DNA of 64,000 bases, taken from Candidatus Bathyarchaeota archaeon (GTDB lineage Archaea; Thermoproteota; Bathyarchaeia; Bathyarchaeales; Bathycorpusculaceae). The notes under the pieces are model-generated. The model was given only the letters and a program-made list of their open reading frames with translations, made no database searches and had not been told where the DNA came from. The stretch lies in the NCBI GenBank assembly GCA_963702095.1, contig OY969706.1, positions 1,152,001-1,216,000 on the forward strand, read 5' to 3'. Positions 52,801 to 59,913 of this stretch are shown piece after piece (the first letter of the stretch is position 1; every line of letters begins with the position of its first letter). The translations under genes were made by a program, and so were the position numbers.

Positions 52801-53835
52801 ATGAGCGCCAATTCGGTTAACCTCGATGTTTTTCAAGATATTATCGAGCAGCATGGTAGAGCTATTATGCAGAGGGCGGTTGAGCAAATCCTGGATTCTA
52901 ATTACGATGCAGGGGCCGTTTCTTCAGCTGTTAAGTACCACGTAAAGTTTCTACCCCATGTTTTACCGCTTGTCCCAGCTTTGATGGCTCTCTCATGCGA
53001 AGCTGTAGGCGGAAAAAAAGAGGCGCCTGTAGGCATCGGAGCCGCTTTGACGCTTCTTGTTGAAGCCGCAAACATCCACGATGACATAATCGACCAAACA
53101 GTGATTAAACATAAGAGACGGACAGTTTTTGGCAAATTCGGAACCGGCGTCACCCTTTTGGCAGGAGACTTCTTGCTTTTTCAGGCTTCCCAGTCCCTAT
53201 ACCAAGAATGCAACACCTTGCCAAACGAGCAGAAAAATTTGATTCTTGATTTGACCTTCAAATCGCTGGCTAAGATCAGTAAATCTGCTGCAAAAGAAAT
53301 CAAGATGCAAAAACGGTTTGATGTGTCACCGAAGGATTATTTAGAAATTGTTCGACTCAGAGCCTCTGTTCCCGAAGCACACTGTATGATTGGCGGAATT
53401 TTAGGGGATGGCACCGAAAGTATGGTTGCCAGTCTGGGAGTATATGGAAGAAATTACGGTGTCGTGGGAACGGTGATTGACGAATTTATGGATCTCTACG
53501 ATTATACAAAATTCAGTAATAGGCTCAGAGATGAGGTGGTTCCTCTGCCGGTTTTATGTGCCCTTGAAGACTCAAAGATTAAAGGTGAAATTTTGCCGTT
53601 GCTTGAGGCGTTTGGAGTAAATCCCTCAAGTCACAACAGTATCGTCCGTGCGGTATTGGCTTCGGATAAAGTTAAGCAGCTTCAAAAAGATCTCTCTGCG
53701 CTGCCTATAAAAAGTAACCTAGCACTTCGGGAATTTATTAGAGAAAATAATGCTCGAGGGAATCTCCTTACCATCCAAATGGTGGTACAAGACTTCCTCT
53801 GCAATATAGGTGAATTTACCAGCCTAACGATCTAA
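52801..53835 (+). CDS. Degenerate polyprenyl-synthase-fold protein (ComQ-like candidate peptide prenyltransferase)
   Basis: First Asp-rich motif HDDIID intact, GDFLL; second motif IDEFMD; lacks GGKRxRP, GQxxD and KT motifs. Confidence 0.8.
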   Translation: MSANSVNLDVFQDIIEQHGRAIMQRAVEQILDSNYDAGAVSSAVKYHVKFLPHVLPLVPALMALSCEAVGGKKEAPVGIGAALTLLVEAANIHDDIIDQTVIKHKRRTVFGKFGTGVTLLAGDFLLFQASQSLYQECNTLPNEQKNLILDLTFKSLAKISKSAAKEIKMQKRFDVSPKDYLEIVRLRASVPEAHCMIGGILGDGTESMVASLGVYGRNYGVVGTVIDEFMDLYDYTKFSNRLRDEVVPLPVLCALEDSKIKGEILPLLEAFGVNPSSHNSIVRAVLASDKVKQLQKDLSALPIKSNLALREFIRENNARGNLLTIQMVVQDFLCNIGEFTSLTI

Positions 53836-53854
53836 TAATTTTTTGTGCTTTCAT
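53816..53854 (-). CDS. 12-aa peptide MKAQKIIRSLGW, candidate prenylated-peptide precursor
   Basis: ATG AAA GCA CAA AAA ATT ATT AGA TCG TTA GGC TGG TAA; RBS GAAGGAG 9 nt upstream; C-terminal Trp. Confidence 0.65.
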   Translation of the reverse strand: MKAQKIIRSLGW

Positions 53855-53874
53855 TTTTTATTACTCCTTCATTT

Positions 53875-53935
53875 GTATTTTTGTACAACAGTATTTGTGT
53901 ACAACAGATAAAAAGCAAGTTAGCCTTAAAAGCTT
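53875..53935 (-). promoter_or_regulatory. Promoter of the peptide gene with tandem 16-bp repeats
   Basis: gtatttttgtacaaca / gtatttgtgtacaaca at 53875-53906; minus-strand AAAGCTTTTAAG BRE/TATA-like box at ~53925-53936. Confidence 0.5.
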
Positions 53936-54011
53936 TGTTGTCCTTACCAAGAATTCAGTTTCTGAATGCTTAATATACTTAAGCCAGTTCCCCTGAAGTA
54001 GCCTTTAGATA

Positions 54012-55349
54012 ATGATGCATATAGATGCAGTAAACCATTTACTCGGTAAAGACAAGAAAGCGATCGTCATAAACATAGTTCTGATAGCGAACGCTTTTAT
54101 CTGGTATTCATATGCATTCAAATATCTCACAGGCAGCATCAATGCCATAAACTTGAACGATCCTTTTCTAACAATAATCAGCATCCACTTCATAGCGCTA
54201 TTTATTGCTCTAATACTAGGCGAACTTATCAGCCGCAAAATCGAGGACCACCTCAAACTTCTAATCATATGGATGGGGATTGGTGCTTTGCTGTCGCTAG
54301 TACCTCTAATCACTGGCCAAACCGGCACAGGGCTAATACTATTTGGACTCATAGCCGGCTTCAACTTTGGCTTCGGACTGCCCATATGCTTAGGCTATTT
54401 TGCTTCCACAACCGAATCCAGCAACCGCGGTAAGCTCGGCGGAATCATATACCTCCTAATCGGTATCGGGGCATTCATAATCAGTATAGGTGGCACCGAG
54501 AGCGTGTTTGTTGTATCGTTTATTCTCGCAGGTTGGAAAGCTATTGGTTTGTTCTTTGCGGCACTTTTAAGACCTGCAGAGAATAAAGCCCGCCCCGAAA
54601 AAAATCTGTCATATCAAAAAATAATTTCAAACAAAGTTTTTCTTTTATACTTCTTTCCGTGGGTACTATTCGTTTTGGTTAATAGTTTATCCATTCCTAT
54701 TATCGAACATTTTGGAAGTACCTTCCCAGCGGAACTTGTCCAAACTTCAACCAGTGTTGAATATGTGCTCTCAGGAGTTTTTGCTGTGCTCTTTGGCTTC
54801 TTTGCTGACTCCAAAGGTCGGAAACGTTTAACTGTTGCAGGATTTGCCTTGTTGGGGTTAGGCTACGCTGTTTTAGGTTTCTCCTCAGGAGACATATTAG
54901 CCTGGTGGTTTTACACAGTCGTCGATGGCGTCGCGTGGGGCTGCTTTGTAATGGTATTTATTTTCGCTTTATGGGGTGACATAGGGGAAGGTCAAAAGAG
55001 CGAAAAAATCTATGCTATCGGACTTGTACCTTATCTATTAACCTCCTTCATCAGATTTTCAATCGGCGACACTTTGGCAAGTTATGTTAATGCTCAAGGT
55101 TTAGCAACGATCTTTTCGTTTTTCAGCTTCTTTTTGTTCATAGCTGTATTGCCCCTTGTATTTGCTCCTGAGACAATGCCTGAGCAAACTATCAGAAATA
55201 ATGACCTAAAAAGCTACATTGAAAAAGCAAATAAACAAAAGGTGAAAGTTCAGAAGAAACAGGAAGGGCAAACCGAGGAAACTCAGGAAGTTGCAGAAGA
55301 GGCGGAAGAGTACAAGAAAGCAAAAGAATTGGCGGAAAAATACTATTAA
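54012..55349 (+). CDS. MFS-fold membrane protein
   Basis: About 12 TM segments, G.FADSKGRK motif, charged C-terminal tail. Confidence 0.8.
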   Translation: MMHIDAVNHLLGKDKKAIVINIVLIANAFIWYSYAFKYLTGSINAINLNDPFLTIISIHFIALFIALILGELISRKIEDHLKLLIIWMGIGALLSLVPLITGQTGTGLILFGLIAGFNFGFGLPICLGYFASTTESSNRGKLGGIIYLLIGIGAFIISIGGTESVFVVSFILAGWKAIGLFFAALLRPAENKARPEKNLSYQKIISNKVFLLYFFPWVLFVLVNSLSIPIIEHFGSTFPAELVQTSTSVEYVLSGVFAVLFGFFADSKGRKRLTVAGFALLGLGYAVLGFSSGDILAWWFYTVVDGVAWGCFVMVFIFALWGDIGEGQKSEKIYAIGLVPYLLTSFIRFSIGDTLASYVNAQGLATIFSFFSFFLFIAVLPLVFAPETMPEQTIRNNDLKSYIEKANKQKVKVQKKQEGQTEETQEVAEEAEEYKKAKELAEKYY

Positions 55350-55379
55350 GCCGTGGACTTGGTTTGCTTAATACCACTT

Positions 55380-55720
55380 TCCGTTCAGCCTCAAACCTGT
55401 TCACCGCTAACTCAAATAAAAAGGCTTTTGATTTCAGGTTCTGTTAACTCTTCCCCAAGGTCAGCGCGGATCGCTCGTAGCAGAACTGATTTTCCGCTGC
55501 CGCTATCCCCTGTAATATAGACGACGTCTTTGGGACCGATTTTGAGCTCTGCATCTAGCACCTTGAATTTCTGAGTCTCATCAATACCCAAGCCGAACGC
55601 TTAAGCTACAACAAGACTTCTTGGCGTGGGCTTTGTGTGCGTTTCATAACTGATGTAAAATGTAAATTTTTCTTCAGTTCGATCGTAAATTCGGGATAGT
55701 TTCTTTATGTGAAAGATTTC
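55380..55720 (-). pseudogene. Truncated ABC-type P-loop ATPase remnant
   Basis: Hand translation ..VVA*AFGLGIDE..YITGDSGSGKSVLLR; stop at 55601-55603; frame ends shortly after Walker A. Confidence 0.7.
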
Positions 55721-55911
55721 TTTTCGATCGCTGCAAGATCTTCGATGCAAGGGTTATCTAGTGAGATGACAGTGCTAAGCCCTAAAAATGGTCCTGCGGA
55801 TAAACAACAGCTAAATGAACGATATGCAGCTTGGCTCCCTTTATGCCATATTCATCAGTTAGAGCTTAAATACAGGTTGCATGCAAATAGCAAGCAAGGG
55901 AGTGACAGAAT

Positions 55912-57471
55912 TTGAAAAAGCGTATGCTAATAGCTCTTACTGCTGTTGTTATAATTGTTTTTTCACTCATTACTCCAATTCAAGCTTCAATCGGGTGGCG
56001 TAGAACTTATCAGGGTGGCTCAATGGATGTGTTGACGCCTCTTTCTGTTGTTCAAACAACTGATGGTGGATATGCTACTGCAGTTTTTGGTTATATTCGC
56101 CAAGAGAATGAACAAGGTCTACAAAGCTCATATGAACTACAAATTTTAAAAACAGATTCAAACGGTGCAGTGCAGTGGAAGAAAAGTTATCCAACAGTTG
56201 AAGACCCAAACCATTTGAGCCAAATAATAAACACTTATTCAGATCAGTACGTGATTGTTCAAACCGCAGATCAAGGCTATGTAATAGCTGGGAGTGGAGG
56301 ACAATTCTGGTTATTTAAAGTAAACGCCCAAGGAACAGTTGTCTGGAGCAACGTCTACCAGTTGGCTGACGAATCATACATCAACAGCTATCTCTATTCA
56401 ATGATCCAAACTAGTGATGGTGGCTTCGCCTTAGCAGGATCTACTTATACAGACATGGGCGGCAAAGACTTCTGGCTAGTTAAAACCAACTCACTTGGTT
56501 TAGCCCAATGGAATCATACTTACAACAGCGGTTCATACACTGATGTATCTGGAGCAACCTATCCTTGTGAAGACGAGGCATTATGCGTAATTCAAACAAG
56601 TGACGGAGGATACGCACTAGTTGGTAGCAATTCACTCTACCGAGCAAGCACTTCATCGGTAGTCTATGCCTCATGGATGATTAAAACTGATGCCCAAGGA
56701 AATCAAGTGTGGAACCACGGCTACGACTTGTTAAACGAATATGGCTACAAACGCATTATTATCCAGACAAGCGATAATGGATATGCTGTTGCCGGTACAC
56801 AAAATGGCGATTTCTGCTTATTTAAAATCTCTGGAACCGGTCAAACTCAATGGAGCGAAATCTATGGAGATCAACAAACAGATACGCCTTGCGCGCTTGT
56901 CCAGCTTGAAGATAACGGGTACGCTATTGCCGGAACGTGGACACCGCCTAATATGACCGCAACCAGACCAACTATGGGGCTTCTGCGAACTGATTCAGCG
57001 GGTCAAGAACTTTGGCTAAAGACATTTAGTGCAAAAGAAACCGAAAGTGCCTTCAGCTATGATCAAGCAAACGATATGATACGAACAAGCGATGGAAGCT
57101 ACGCAATAGTGGGATCAACAACCTTTGGAACGGAAACTCACCAAGACGTCTTTTTTATTAAAACTGAAACGTTAGAACAAATCCCACAAATCACACCTTT
57201 GCCTACCCCATTGACAGATGATGGTAACTCTACACAATCGCCAGATCAAACATCCCAACCCTCATCTAACCCAACCCAGCCGAGCCCAACTCAAAATTCA
57301 CACTCTACGATTAACCCAGACGATGGCTCCTCACACAATATACTGCAAATCGATAATCCACAAAACATTCTAATCGTCGTCGGAGTCGCCTTAGTTATCG
57401 CTTTAGTGAGTATATCGGTTGTAGTACTGATAAGGAGAAGGAAATCACCAAAAATTCCACCACCTCCTTGA
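55912..57471 (+). CDS. Secreted beta-propeller repeat protein with PT linker and TM anchor
   Basis: Repeated IQTSDGGYALAG / WLVKTD..G..QW. Confidence 0.8.
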   Translation: MKKRMLIALTAVVIIVFSLITPIQASIGWRRTYQGGSMDVLTPLSVVQTTDGGYATAVFGYIRQENEQGLQSSYELQILKTDSNGAVQWKKSYPTVEDPNHLSQIINTYSDQYVIVQTADQGYVIAGSGGQFWLFKVNAQGTVVWSNVYQLADESYINSYLYSMIQTSDGGFALAGSTYTDMGGKDFWLVKTNSLGLAQWNHTYNSGSYTDVSGATYPCEDEALCVIQTSDGGYALVGSNSLYRASTSSVVYASWMIKTDAQGNQVWNHGYDLLNEYGYKRIIIQTSDNGYAVAGTQNGDFCLFKISGTGQTQWSEIYGDQQTDTPCALVQLEDNGYAIAGTWTPPNMTATRPTMGLLRTDSAGQELWLKTFSAKETESAFSYDQANDMIRTSDGSYAIVGSTTFGTETHQDVFFIKTETLEQIPQITPLPTPLTDDGNSTQSPDQTSQPSSNPTQPSPTQNSHSTINPDDGSSHNILQIDNPQNILIVVGVALVIALVSISVVVLIRRRKSPKIPPPP

Positions 57472-57551: not shown

Positions 57552-58424
57552 ATGAATTCATACACACAGAAGATAGAGGTAACTCGGTTGAAAAATCGCT
57601 ACGCTCTATTCTTGCTGTTTCTGGTCTGTGGTGTTAGCTTACCTTCTCTTTCAGGTTTGCTAATCTATCCCTTTGCGCTGATTCCTTCCGAATTAGTCCT
57701 TGCTTATTTCATCTCACTTGCGCTGCTATTCTTAGCTCTTGCAATGCTTTTTCGTACTCGTCAATCCCTCAATAGCTATTGGCAAATTCTATTTGCCTTC
57801 TTCGTTGCTTCCTTGGCATTGTTTTTCGACTTACTATTCAACCTTACTTCCCAGACGCTAAACGGCTTCCTGCTAGACATGTTACTGAGCGCCTCAATAA
57901 TAGTAAGCGTCATTGTCCTATTGACAAAGTTAAGTGGGAACTCTCTTGGCGACATTTTTCTAAAAAAAGGAAAACTCAAATTAGGTCTAACCGTTGGATT
58001 CATAGGCTTTTTCATCTTCGCAATAACAGCTATTCCAGTAGCCCAGTATATGTTTCAAGGACAAAACTTAACCTTGGATAGAGTAATTGCCTGGTTACCT
58101 TGGATAATCCCTATAGTACTGTTAAATGGAGTCCGAGAAGAACTACTCTACAGAGGACTCTTCTTAAAAAAATACGAAGTAAAGCTTGGACCAAAAGCCT
58201 CCAACCTGCTGCAAGCAATAATTTTCTCATTAAGTCACTCCATGGCCGGAGTAGGGCTAAGTACATATACCCCTTTCATTTGGGCGCTTGTTCTCTTTAC
58301 TTTCGCTCTGGGACTGGCTTGGGGATATCTCATGCAACGCACCGATAGTATAGTGGGATCGGTTTTGTTCCATGCCGGAACTGATATTCCGGTTTTCATA
58401 GGAATATTCTCCAACCTCTTTTAG
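57552..58424 (+). CDS. CPBP (Abi/CAAX protease type II) intramembrane protease
   Basis: EELLYRG, FSLSH, SVLFH. Confidence 0.88.
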   Translation: MNSYTQKIEVTRLKNRYALFLLFLVCGVSLPSLSGLLIYPFALIPSELVLAYFISLALLFLALAMLFRTRQSLNSYWQILFAFFVASLALFFDLLFNLTSQTLNGFLLDMLLSASIIVSVIVLLTKLSGNSLGDIFLKKGKLKLGLTVGFIGFFIFAITAIPVAQYMFQGQNLTLDRVIAWLPWIIPIVLLNGVREELLYRGLFLKKYEVKLGPKASNLLQAIIFSLSHSMAGVGLSTYTPFIWALVLFTFALGLAWGYLMQRTDSIVGSVLFHAGTDIPVFIGIFSNLF

Positions 58425-58464: not shown

Positions 58465-59913
58465 CTATCTTGGCATTACAGCCAAAAATGGTTCAGGCTC
58501 CATCTGCACTGTCGCAAACACGGCTAGCGCGATACTCCAAAAGACGTCGTCGTGGGTGCCGTTTGGGTGAGAGTAGCCTATGGCGCCATCTTTGCGATGG
58601 TCATAGCGTTCAACGTTTAGCTCTGTGCAAAGGTCGCCTCTGTATGGGCGTTCCCAATTCAGCAGCGGATAGTAGAATTTGCCGCTAGACATGCGTTGTT
58701 TGAGTAGGCTTGCCATTTCGCTTTTTCTGGGGACGCTAAAGTTGACGCCTTCAGCGTTTTCTATGCCGGATGTTTGCATGTCGGCTATGATGCTTGGGCC
58801 TTCTCGGGTGAAGTCTACTCGGATTTTTTGGAATCCACCCCCGCGATCCTGCAGCGCCTTGAGGTAGCCAAGGACTTGGGCATAGAGTGTGGGCTGCTGA
58901 AAAATCTTCAAATGCCTCAAAAGCAGCTTATCATTTAGACGCTCGATGATTGCAAGTACGCAATAGTCTCGGGTTTGGGCTAAATCTAGTCCAGCAAAGA
59001 ACTCTCCTTCACAGGTTACTTCTGGGTTAAACTCTTGCAGGTCCTCCCCACAATTCTTCGCAGTACCAATGCAACTAACGATTAGGCTTTGTGCTAGCCA
59101 GGTATCTTCGTCTTCAGCCCAATCAGCCTCCATCTCTCGACGCCACCGCTGAGCGTCATCCCCGAACTGGCGTTTAATCTTCTCAACAATACCCGGCTTT
59201 AGTGGGCCGTTGGGTTCAAGGGCGTCGTTCCAGCGTACGTGTGAGCCGGCGAAGTCTTCGTAGTCTTTGTGGTTGCACATCTTCCAAAACAGCGAATCAT
59301 TATTCCAAGGAGTAGACGTCGCTATGAGCTTGCCGTTGGTTGTTCCCAAGGTGAATAGAATAGCGTCATAGAGCTCCTCGTCGTTGGGCAAGAAATTGCA
59401 CTCTTCGATCCAGATGACTTTGAATGTTGGACCTCTGATGGTATCGGGGTTGTTGGGGAAGGCTTCTATCATGCTTCCGTTGGGCAGGCTGACTCGGGTT
59501 TTCTGTACATGCAAGCCCTGCTGAGCGGGGAGTTTTCTGCAGAAGCCGCCTATGCGCCTGATGTTTAGCTTAGTTTGGCGCCAGCTGGGACCTACGATGG
59601 CTATGTAGCTGTCTGGGTGCTCCAGTGCATATTTGAGGATCAACGCTGAAACGCTAAAGCTTTTGCCGGTTTGGCGTGCCCAGCGTACCGCGGTGAATTG
59701 GTTTTTCTCAAACATCTCTGCTAACTCAAGCTGGTATTTGTAGGGTGTAAAGCCAAAAATCTGCTCAAAAAAGCCCTTAACATCACCCCTCAAGGCGTCA
59801 ACTTGGCTCTCAGTGGATTTTTCTATAGCTGCCACGTCTTCCCAGAGCTTGGTGTACTCTGAAAACAACTTATTTGGATGAAGTGCCCTTGCCTTTTTTT
59901 CTGAGCGCCTCAT
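58465..59913 (-). CDS. Terminase large subunit
   Basis: Walker A ARQTGKS, Walker B IWIEE, TSTP, nuclease GLDLA..D and HDD. Confidence 0.88.
   Translation of the reverse strand: MRRSEKKARALHPNKLFSEYTKLWEDVAAIEKSTESQVDALRGDVKGFFEQIFGFTPYKYQLELAEMFEKNQFTAVRWARQTGKSFSVSALILKYALEHPDSYIAIVGPSWRQTKLNIRRIGGFCRKLPAQQGLHVQKTRVSLPNGSMIEAFPNNPDTIRGPTFKVIWIEECNFLPNDEELYDAILFTLGTTNGKLIATSTPWNNDSLFWKMCNHKDYEDFAGSHVRWNDALEPNGPLKPGIVEKIKRQFGDDAQRWRREMEADWAEDEDTWLAQSLIVSCIGTAKNCGEDLQEFNPEVTCEGEFFAGLDLAQTRDYCVLAIIERLNDKLLLRHLKIFQQPTLYAQVLGYLKALQDRGGGFQKIRVDFTREGPSIIADMQTSGIENAEGVNFSVPRKSEMASLLKQRMSSGKFYYPLLNWERPYRGDLCTELNVERYDHRKDGAIGYSHPNGTHDDVFWSIALAVFATVQMEPEPFLAVMPR

Follow-up and report, generated by a model that had tools for sequence, protein, structure and literature searches.

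A conserved 12-codon gene beside a prenyl-synthase-like enzyme in Bathyarchaeia, a candidate leaderless lipopeptide precursor

Results

A micro-gene between a prenyl-synthase homologue and a transporter

Our analysis concerns a three-gene cassette in a 64,000-nucleotide (nt) stretch of the genome of a Candidatus Bathyarchaeota archaeon (GenBank assembly GCA_963702095.1, contig OY969706.1, positions 1,152,001 to 1,216,000 of the forward strand). We refer to this whole stretch as the window and number positions from its first letter. The cassette comprises a homologue of trans-isoprenyl diphosphate synthases (IDS), a micro-gene of 12 codons that ends in Trp, and a transporter of the major facilitator superfamily (MFS) (Table 1). 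Comparative sequence evidence indicates that the micro-gene is a real, conserved, protein-coding gene. Its ties to the enzyme, and for the most part to the MFS gene, are both physical and evolutionary. The likely product is a peptide carrying a lipid tag, a kind so far demonstrated in bacteria only.

The micro open reading frame (micro-ORF) reads ATG-AAA-GCA-CAA-AAA-ATT-ATT-AGA-TCG-TTA-GGC-TGG-TAA on the minus strand (ATG at 53854-53852, TGG at 53821-53819, TAA at 53818-53816) and translates to MKAQKIIRSLGW. Just one sense codon precedes its ATG in frame. The frame lies tail to tail with the enzyme gene and is divergent from the MFS gene. A previous reading, made from the sequence alone, had correctly described the polyprenyl-synthase homologue, the convergent Trp-ending ORF of 12 codons, and the divergent MFS gene, and the ribosome-binding site that it claimed was found as well. 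Its account of the layout therefore stands, except that it left unmentioned the 20 nt that the micro-ORF shares with the 3' end of the enzyme gene.

Table 1. Features of the cassette, in window coordinates.
Feature	Positions	Strand	Basis or remark
trans-IDS-like enzyme, 344 amino acids, putative peptide prenyltransferase	52801-53835	+	PF00348 match, motifs, predicted fold
Micro-gene, 12 codons plus stop, MKAQKIIRSLGW, putative leaderless precursor with C-terminal Gly-Trp	53854..53816	-	Conservation, codon turnover
Shine-Dalgarno-like GAAGGAG	53870-53864	-	9 nt 5' of the micro-ORF ATG
Two direct copies of TGTTGTACA, core palindrome TTGTACAA, putative operator	53882-53890 and 53898-53906	-	Between TATA-like box and Shine-Dalgarno-like element
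CAAAGCTTTTAAGGCTAAC (AAAGCTTTTAAGGCTAAC on the + strand), TFB recognition element (BRE)/TATA-like, likely micro-gene promoter	53919-53937	-	Alignment of 10 close relatives
MFS transporter, 445 amino acids, divergent from micro-gene, putative exporter	54012-55349	+	PF07690 match

Conservation of the micro-gene

Viewed in the window alone, the micro-ORF falls within chance expectation: there are 790 ATG-initiated micro-ORFs of 8 to 30 amino acids (aa), of which 25 end in Trp and 7 of those carry a Shine-Dalgarno (SD)-like 4-mer. Its significance comes from conservation across loci rather than from its occurrence in the window. We collected 109 homologous loci by a search of 61 genomes and from contigs of relatives (the best 80 of 207), and 99 distinct loci had at least 120 nt past the enzyme stop codon. 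Our detector called any antisense ORF of 8 to 45 aa with at least three Lys or Arg residues and a Trp among the last four residues, situated between -60 and +200 nt of the enzyme stop. Such frames were present at 74 of the 99 loci, versus 6 of 99 when the sense strand was searched and a mean of 5.0 of 99 over 20 mononucleotide shuffles. Among close relatives (enzyme identity 50-73%, metagenome loci included), an ORF of 12 to 13 aa with the pattern MK..K.IR..GW was kept in 10 of 10.

Hand curation, which removed eight detector outputs that were unlike the family and added 15 from other detectors, produced a catalogue for the 99 loci with 79 W-tail peptides, 4 with a Tyr or Phe tail, 5 of other types, and 11 loci with none. 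A scan of the flanks of homologues for Trp-terminal micro-ORFs had been set beforehand as a test, and it was positive at 74 to 79 of the 99 loci. The catalogued micro-ORFs are 12 to 24 aa long and follow the consensus M-K-(K/R-rich)-(P)-[IVLM]-R-x(1-6)-(G)-W-x(0-4). When the tails of 67 W-tail peptides were compared, the last Trp was final in 20 and followed by one residue in 40, such that Trp was final or penultimate in 60. Gly was the residue most frequently found before the first tail Trp (23/67), and many family members carry WW or WWW runs. Of the catalogued micro-ORFs, 83 have a standard start, which is ATG in 68. An SD-like element precedes the start in 72 of the 83, and 66 lie entirely past the enzyme stop codon.

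Two smaller groups of loci were also seen. One is a sub-group of K-rich P[IVM]R peptides with Trp-less tails, mostly with Tyr instead (for example, ...PMRLYHI, ...PIRTYV, ...PVRTLPP), at L098, L099, L103, L104, L107, L029, L030, and L110. The other (L072, L093, and L095) has a family-like frame, ...TNKPIRPIRSWWM-stop, with no ATG, GTG, or TTG start within reach; these frames may use a noncanonical start codon or may be decaying copies.

Synonymous codon turnover in the family indicates that selection acts on the protein. Across 54 peptides, the conserved Arg is encoded by six codons (AGA 27, AGG 11, CGA 11, CGG 3, CGC 1, CGT 1), all four codons are used for Pro and for the Gly preceding Trp, and the stop codon is TAA in 34, TAG in 19, and TGA in 1. 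Eight 12-codon orthologues have 6, 2, and 8 variable sites at codon positions 1, 2, and 3, respectively, and the identical peptides of L121 and L122 are encoded by sequences with four differing sites, all of them synonymous. Together with the 74 of 99 loci and their controls, this turnover ruled out a chance ORF. An antisense-overlap artefact of the conserved C terminus of the enzyme was also ruled out: the frame is not a by-product of enzyme coding constraint because 66 of the 83 micro-ORFs lie beyond the enzyme stop. Finally, neither a known RNA family nor a structured RNA was found: an Rfam search at E values up to 1 returned no match, and the predicted fold was not unusual relative to shuffles (z = -0.04).

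Linkage and distribution of the cassette

The MFS protein of the window matches MFS_1 (PF07690, 48.3 bits; threshold 33.4) and is encoded by a single copy in the genome. Before de-duplication, a same-strand MFS homologue was located within 1.2 kb 3' of the enzyme at 93 of the 97 loci with room, in agreement with the co-occurrence that the sequence-only reading had anticipated. Peptide and MFS gene are both present at 80 of the 91 distinct loci whose sequence extends 1.3 kb or more downstream; 5 have the MFS gene only, 2 the peptide only, and 4 neither. At the genome level (cut-offs of E 1e-30 or better for the enzyme and 1e-20 or better for the MFS protein), a hand count of 60 relatives found both enzyme and MFS in 31, the enzyme alone in 2, the MFS alone in 6, and neither in 21; these counts are given without a test statistic, as related genomes are not independent.

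The MFS-only genomes are informative. Two of the six are contig-end truncations, one of which (locus L166) shows the micro-ORF at the contig edge. Four genomes (G005, G018, G033, and G036; completeness 80-96%) keep the MFS gene followed by a gene for a radical S-adenosylmethionine (rSAM)/SPASM protein, with no enzyme match and no family-like micro-ORF; in two of these four, the leucyl-tRNA synthetase (LeuRS) gene is directly 5' of the MFS gene. In G036 (locus L162) and G033 (L164), LeuRS is followed by MFS-rSAM, with about 500 nt in place of the enzyme and the micro-gene, which is a clean presence/absence polymorphism of the pair within one genus. Because enzyme and micro-gene are present or missing together, we consider them to form one functional pair, and this is the strongest evidence for it. 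The tie of the MFS gene to the peptide is looser than that of the enzyme, since the MFS gene persists where both are missing.

When ORFs of at least 70 aa were clustered across about 80 loci, the recurrent neighbour families were the enzyme, the MFS protein, rSAM/SPASM, LeuRS, an amidohydrolase, and one family without a Pfam match; no recurrent kinase or regulator family was among them. A second IDS paralogue upstream, for which single-linkage clustering hinted at 58 members, was rejected when the real homologues proved to be just four.

Of 401 sampled Bathyarchaeia genomes, 112 have the enzyme at E 1e-30 or better. These are concentrated in three families of the order to which the window belongs (81/103, 16/18, and 7/11); elsewhere in the class the enzyme is rare. 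Some genomes have up to four matches. A few records that hold the enzyme are labelled Baldrarchaeota, Nanoarchaeia, Thermoproteota, Sulfotelmatobacter, or Actinomycetota. Loci L060 and L074 are cassette homologues on contigs of metagenome-assembled genomes labelled Sulfotelmatobacter (Acidobacteriota) and Actinomycetota, and these bacterial labels probably reflect mis-binned Bathyarchaeia contigs. At L074, a CefB-like rSAM gene of a different type directly follows the enzyme, with no MFS gene and no peptide.

An enzyme with altered synthase motifs

The only Pfam match of the enzyme is polyprenyl_synt (PF00348, 60.4 bits; threshold 27; E 2e-16). It falls far below the cut-offs of all 14 NCBIfam IDS models (the best is GGPP_syn, at 92.8 versus 500 bits), and a separate canonical synthase paralogue (218 bits) is encoded elsewhere in the same 2.94-Mb genome. 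The sequence-only reading had claimed an intact first and a degenerate second Asp-rich motif (FARM and SARM, respectively), and this is what we found: HDDIID at residues 93-98 (D94, D95, D98) and, instead of DDxxD, DEFMD at residues 227-231. The first motif is invariant in 33 of 33 homologues and the second has the form D/E/N-E/D-x-x-D. In trans-IDS, GGKRxR, GQxxD, KT, and the FQ before the SARM bind isopentenyl diphosphate (IPP) or the diphosphate group. Compared with the paralogue from its own genome, the enzyme has VLPLVP for GGKRWRP, SAAKE for GQAMD, LRA for YKT, and VGTVIDEFMD for AFQMQDDILD. With its FARM retained but GGKRxR, KT, and FQ gone, the enzyme seems to be non-elongating; judged by these motifs, it has lost the sequence hallmarks of chain elongation. 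It looks like a derivative of an archaeal short-chain synthase in which donor binding was kept and IPP binding was lost.

Structural comparisons place the enzyme within the same superfamily. Its AlphaFold model (pLDDT 93.7) has an all-alpha IDS fold, for which Foldseek returned the geranylgeranyl diphosphate (GGPP) synthase of P. horikoshii (1wy0) as top match, with a template-modelling (TM) score of 0.80, and the indole/tryptophan farnesyltransferase Ord1 (PDB 9V4G-J) at rank 12, in a comparison that does not separate peptide prenyltransferases from synthases. A family profile searched against PDB sequences likewise placed 1wy0 first (E 1.6e-37) and Ord1 second (about 1e-27). No covariation was seen between the tail type of the peptide (W or Y) and the residues of the second motif. 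A complex prediction scored 0.02 (mark 0.32) and weighs on neither side, with the L005 enzyme paired with the 34-residue TTG-extended frame of L005 and not with a 12-residue peptide.

The region upstream of the micro-gene

The BRE/TATA-like AAAGCTTTTAAGGCTAAC and the two copies of TGTTGTACA are common to the close relatives in the alignment of 10, and a CTTTTAAG box is also visible in the upstream strings of distant loci. Two matches to TGTTGTACA were counted versus 0.54 expected, and the tandem arrangement TGTTGTACA-N7-TGTTGTACA occurs nowhere else in the 2.94-Mb genome. A related TGT..ACA element lies 5' of 61 of the 83 micro-ORFs. By its sequence, this region looks like a dedicated, regulated promoter, and it is plausible that the micro-gene is driven by a promoter of its own. 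Given that the tandem site is unique in the genome, a putative regulator would have a regulon of one locus; no candidate regulator gene conserved near the TGTTGTACA repeats was found.

Genes downstream of the cassette

In 42 of 60 distinct loci with room, an rSAM/SPASM gene directly follows the MFS gene. At L121, a 73%-identical relative, the order is LeuRS-enzyme-MFS-rSAM, with a gap of 24 nt between the last two. The protein is a member of TIGR04084 (302 bits; cut-off 225). In the window genome, an intact orthologue with 78% identity is located 400 kb away on the other strand (G000:C1:1605602-1606729 [-], corresponding to L127:1498-2628), and no micro-ORF adjoins it. The DNA homology that L121 shares with the window breaks off exactly at the stop codon of the MFS gene (55350-55352), and homology at the distant orthologue is limited to the gene itself, which points to a rearrangement that split the neighbourhood.

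The 560-nt gap after the MFS gene holds two short ORFs (55412-55591 and 55601-55750, both minus strand). A 59-aa ORF of this gap has a Walker-A-like GDSGSGKS and resembles a fragment of an ATPase gene, possibly debris of rearrangement. Next is a 519-aa protein (55912-57471, plus strand) with an N-terminal hydrophobic segment, internal repeat modules, a Pro/Ser/Thr-rich linker, and a C-terminal transmembrane segment; its only match, to DUF5597, is below threshold, and it has a homologue in L108. Farther along are an Rce1-like CAAX/CPBP intramembrane protease (57552-58424, plus strand; PF02517, 61.8 bits) and, adjoining it, a homologue of the terminase large subunit (58465-59913, minus strand; PF03237, 50.5 bits). 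Together, the two may represent an element of viral or mobile type on the downstream side of the cassette. We considered the protease as a part of the cassette and rejected it, as it is not conserved beside any homologous cassette.

Discussion

A candidate leaderless lipopeptide pathway

Our results are best explained by a cassette that makes something like a peptide that is synthesized on the ribosome and modified after translation (RiPP), in which the C-terminal Trp of a leaderless precursor would be prenylated by a trans-IDS-like transferase before export. The bacterial ComQ/ComX, PalQ/PalX, and StheQ/StheX systems are the models for this reading, to which we give a probability of about 0.55. 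Specifically, the cationic 12-residue MKAQKIIRSLGW would be translated from its own short transcript. The enzyme would use its first Asp-rich motif, which is intact, together with Mg2+ to bind an allylic prenyl diphosphate and, no longer binding IPP, would transfer the prenyl group to the indole of the C-terminal Trp, by analogy at C3 as in the bacterial peptides ComX and PalX. The MFS protein would then export the cationic lipopeptide. We infer that the enzyme acts on the peptide and that Trp accepts the prenyl group, and likewise the length of the donor chain, MFS-mediated export, and the biological role, for which a signal, an antimicrobial, or a membrane anchor are candidates.

Several observations weigh against this scenario. 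No peptide was detected at 11 of the 99 loci, and five loci with an MFS gene show no detectable peptide. At nine loci, the peptide is related, K/R-rich, and of the P[IVM]R type but has no Trp in the last five residues (for example, tails RLYHI, RTYV, and RTLPP). Furthermore, the MFS and rSAM genes persist in genomes that have neither enzyme nor peptide. On the side of the enzyme, the Gln before the second motif, to which a part in Trp recognition is ascribed in ComQ-type enzymes and Ord1, is not conserved: Q216 of Ord1 aligns to Thr in the window protein, and across the 99 loci the position is occupied by T, S, L, I, A, N, V, G, M, or H. The enzyme also retains a DExxD acidic motif, so that, by sequence, residual elongation chemistry is possible. 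Last, the enzyme and micro-ORF are convergent, whereas pairs of the comQ/comX type are co-directional; in Bacillus, comQ and comX are followed by comP and comA.

Considering both sides, the proposal of the sequence-only reading that the enzyme prenylates the terminal Trp is partly supported. The W-tails, the non-elongating look of the enzyme, and the joint gain and loss of the pair speak for it; the nonconserved Gln, the nine Trp-less peptides, and the absence of a leader speak against it. Its further suggestion of a quorum-sensing-like system found no support of its own, with no kinase, receptor, or regulator conserved nearby and no leader. Because neither a leader nor a kinase or regulator is linked to the cassette, we view a role in quorum sensing as unlikely. 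An equally doubtful and more elaborate version is that an exported geranylgeranyl- or farnesyl-Trp lipopeptide from a leaderless gene of 12 to 20 codons serves as a diffusible, lineage-specific pheromone of Bathyarchaeia, autoregulated through the palindromic operator and derived from an archaeal GGPP synthase independently of ComQX. If true, no quorum-sensing system based on a peptide would have preceded it in Archaea.

Alternative explanations

Among the alternatives, the one that survives best is that the micro-ORF is a cis-acting, TnaC-like peptide that senses Trp or arrests the ribosome. Stalling at the C-terminal Trp and the stop codon would tune the antisense transcription that runs into the enzyme gene. 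The target of prenylation would then be free Trp, indole, or some other small molecule, in the manner of Ord1, with the MFS protein exporting the product. The convergent, tail-to-tail layout in every locus examined would fit such a mechanism, as would the focus of conservation on the C-terminal P[IV]R..(G)W-stop with its many WW or WWW runs. Moreover, an enzyme that acts on free indole, Ord1, is the second-best PDB sequence match, and the Gln with which peptide prenyltransferases recognise Trp is not conserved. Yet, the strand of the micro-ORF has no downstream gene to regulate, only the enzyme gene in antisense, and in 66 of 83 loci the micro-ORF ends before it reaches the enzyme ORF. A pure codon sensor would have no use for the protein-level conservation of its K/R-rich N-terminal half and of the Gly that precedes Trp, and a strong promoter of its own plus an SD element would fit a highly expressed product gene. 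We know of no archaeal precedent for an arrest peptide, and overall we find this explanation improbable.

There is a small chance that the enzyme elongates chains, either as a prenyl diphosphate synthase of ordinary or specialised type or as a subunit of such a synthase, and that the small protein encoded nearby has an unrelated function. Its homologues carry public names such as GGPP or octaprenyl synthase, Pfam places it in polyprenyl_synt, its fold is that of an IDS with 1wy0 as top match, and it has the FARM as well as an acidic second motif. However, the best NCBIfam score does not come near an equivalog cut-off, the genome encodes a canonical synthase elsewhere, and the IPP-binding motifs have been replaced. 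In addition, enzyme and micro-ORF are lost jointly while the neighbours remain, and up to four matches per genome are unusual for a housekeeping synthase.

Equally slim is the prospect that the peptide is a substrate of the TIGR04084 rSAM/SPASM protein, with the IDS-like enzyme accessory or unrelated. The product could be a Trp-Arg or Trp-Lys cross-link like those of StrB, WgkB, and WprB; according to the accessible part of the source, the joining of Trp to Arg or Lys within short motifs is a known activity of rSAM enzymes (PMC11851443). The frequent position of the gene after the MFS gene, the 24-nt gap at L121, and the intact orthologue that the window genome retains are all compatible with this. 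In addition, an adjoining rSAM gene is found at 38 of 46 loci with W-tail peptides versus 3 of 11 loci with room that have Trp-less peptides, being absent in the other 8. But the distribution of the protein argues otherwise. TIGR04084 is single-copy and far more widespread than the cassette (217/401 genomes of the class versus 112/401 for the enzyme), with matches also in the Sulfolobus control. At 30 TIGR04084 loci of other families, no enzyme, MFS gene, or family-like micro-ORF adjoins it, and the four genomes described above hold MFS-rSAM with no enzyme match or micro-ORF. Conversely, G042 (99% complete) has the enzyme and peptide and no TIGR04084 match at E 1e-40, and the peptide is present at 16 of 18 loci that lack an adjoining rSAM gene. 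On these grounds we downgraded the rSAM/SPASM protein as a dedicated maturase and treat it as a frequent neighbour outside the core unit.

The idea that the frame is open by chance and that what is conserved is a noncoding element such as a terminator, promoter, or small RNA could appeal to the Trp-ending frames among short ATG ORFs of the window (25/790) and to the 20-nt overlap with the enzyme gene, but it is effectively refuted by the 74 positive loci against controls of 6 and 5.0, the synonymous and third-position variation, the 66 of 83 micro-ORFs without overlap, the empty Rfam search, and the absence of a stable fold.

Implications

The Bathyarchaeia are a globally abundant and largely uncultured lineage of sediments and wetlands. 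If the prenylation reading is correct, Archaea would gain a ribosomal lipopeptide pathway with one of the shortest known precursor genes, present in about a quarter of the sampled Bathyarchaeia genomes (112/401). Prenylation of Trp in peptides by enzymes derived from isoprenoid synthases has so far been demonstrated in bacteria only (ComQ, PalQ, ChrPC, and StheQ). Our search of the literature found no archaeal Trp-prenylated peptide, although the sequence networks of PMC13290415 and PMC10853753 could include archaeal members. Through such a pathway, signalling or antagonism between archaeal cells would become accessible to testing, and a new Trp-selective lipidation enzyme that is independent of a leader peptide would be added. 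More generally, the micro-gene is a concrete case of the functional 12-codon genes that standard annotation misses.

Comparison with known systems

Biarylitide precursor genes are five codons long. Biarylitide-type RiPPs resemble the cassette in having a very short, essentially leaderless precursor beside a single tailoring enzyme; the difference, in the part of the source that was accessible, is that their enzyme is a P450 that makes biaryl cross-links (PMC12150307). Ord1 shares with the window enzyme the IDS fold, and it prenylates indole instead of condensing IPP. However, its substrate is a free small molecule, no peptide gene accompanies it, and its catalytic Q216 has Thr as counterpart.

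Closer comparisons come from the trans-IDS-like peptide prenyltransferases. As far as the accessible text of PMC13290415 goes, these include ComQ, the P domain of ChrPC, and PalQ, and all characterised members target a Trp near the C terminus. The same text describes a SARM repurposed for Trp recognition together with a conserved upstream Gln, where the Gln and the first Asp or Asn recognise the indole N-H. In PalQ, the terminal Trp is required, a preceding Gly improves recognition, and residues after the Trp abolish activity (PMC13290415, accessible text). In Paenibacillus alvei, as here, an enzyme of the isoprenoid synthase superfamily adjoins a gene for a peptide with a conserved C-terminal Trp. 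Gly is favoured before that Trp and the window peptide ends in GW; the PalX core, given as DNVRRFFW in the accessible part of PMC10853753, is basic, like the K/R-rich ...IRSLGW of the window; and PalQ acts on the bare core without a leader, just as the window peptide is leaderless. There are also differences. PalX is an NHLP-type precursor (NHLP, nitrile hydratase leader peptide) with a long, cleaved leader, whereas the ORFs of our family are 12 to 24 aa in their entirety, and 47 of the 67 W-tail peptides carry one to four residues past the Trp. The PalQ cluster encodes a histidine kinase, PalP, while the window cassette has no linked kinase and has a linked MFS gene instead. PalQ is remote from canonical IDS in the sequence network, unlike the window enzyme, which scores on PF00348 and is nearest to archaeal GGPP synthases. 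Finally, the host of PalQ is bacterial and ours is archaeal.

The ComQ-like enzyme StheQ of Sphaerobacter thermophilus, as presented in the accessible portion of the preprint (bioRxiv 10.64898/2026.08.29.745113), has an IDS fold, a single Mg site at the FARM, and a pseudo-SARM, and it prenylates an adjoining cognate peptide, StheX, on the Trp second from the C terminus. This penultimate position is matched by the 40 of 67 W-tail peptides with exactly one residue after the last Trp. With their GW or GGW ends or a single residue past the Trp, the peptides of our family closely resemble the known substrates. In contrast to the micro-gene, StheX comprises 69 aa, its N-terminal part is folded, and its gene is downstream of the enzyme gene and shares its strand; neither N215 nor Q212 of StheQ has a conserved counterpart in the window family, and that portion of the preprint does not report an MFS gene.

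With the Bacillus ComQXPA system (IPR033965), the cassette shares a trans-IDS-derived enzyme whose first Asp-rich motif is intact and whose second is altered, and an adjoining small peptide gene with a Trp near the C terminus whose products are highly variable between relatives. In ComX, the Trp is three to four residues from the end. ComX also has a leader that is processed, whereas the window peptide has none, and no ComP/ComA-type kinase or regulator is linked to the cassette. The Gln/Asn-Asp network of the ComQ pseudo-SARM is not conserved in the window family, and the lineage of the window enzyme is archaeal, its best NCBIfam and PDB matches being archaeal synthases of the GGPP/IdsA type. 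The sequence-only reading had likened the enzyme to ComQ; as the Gln in front of that second motif lacks conservation, judged through the alignment to Ord1, we do not regard the enzyme as a member of the ComQ family. Taken together, these comparisons suggest a cassette outside the ComQ family that, as far as analogy carries, would work like ComQ-type systems and that most likely arose independently of them.

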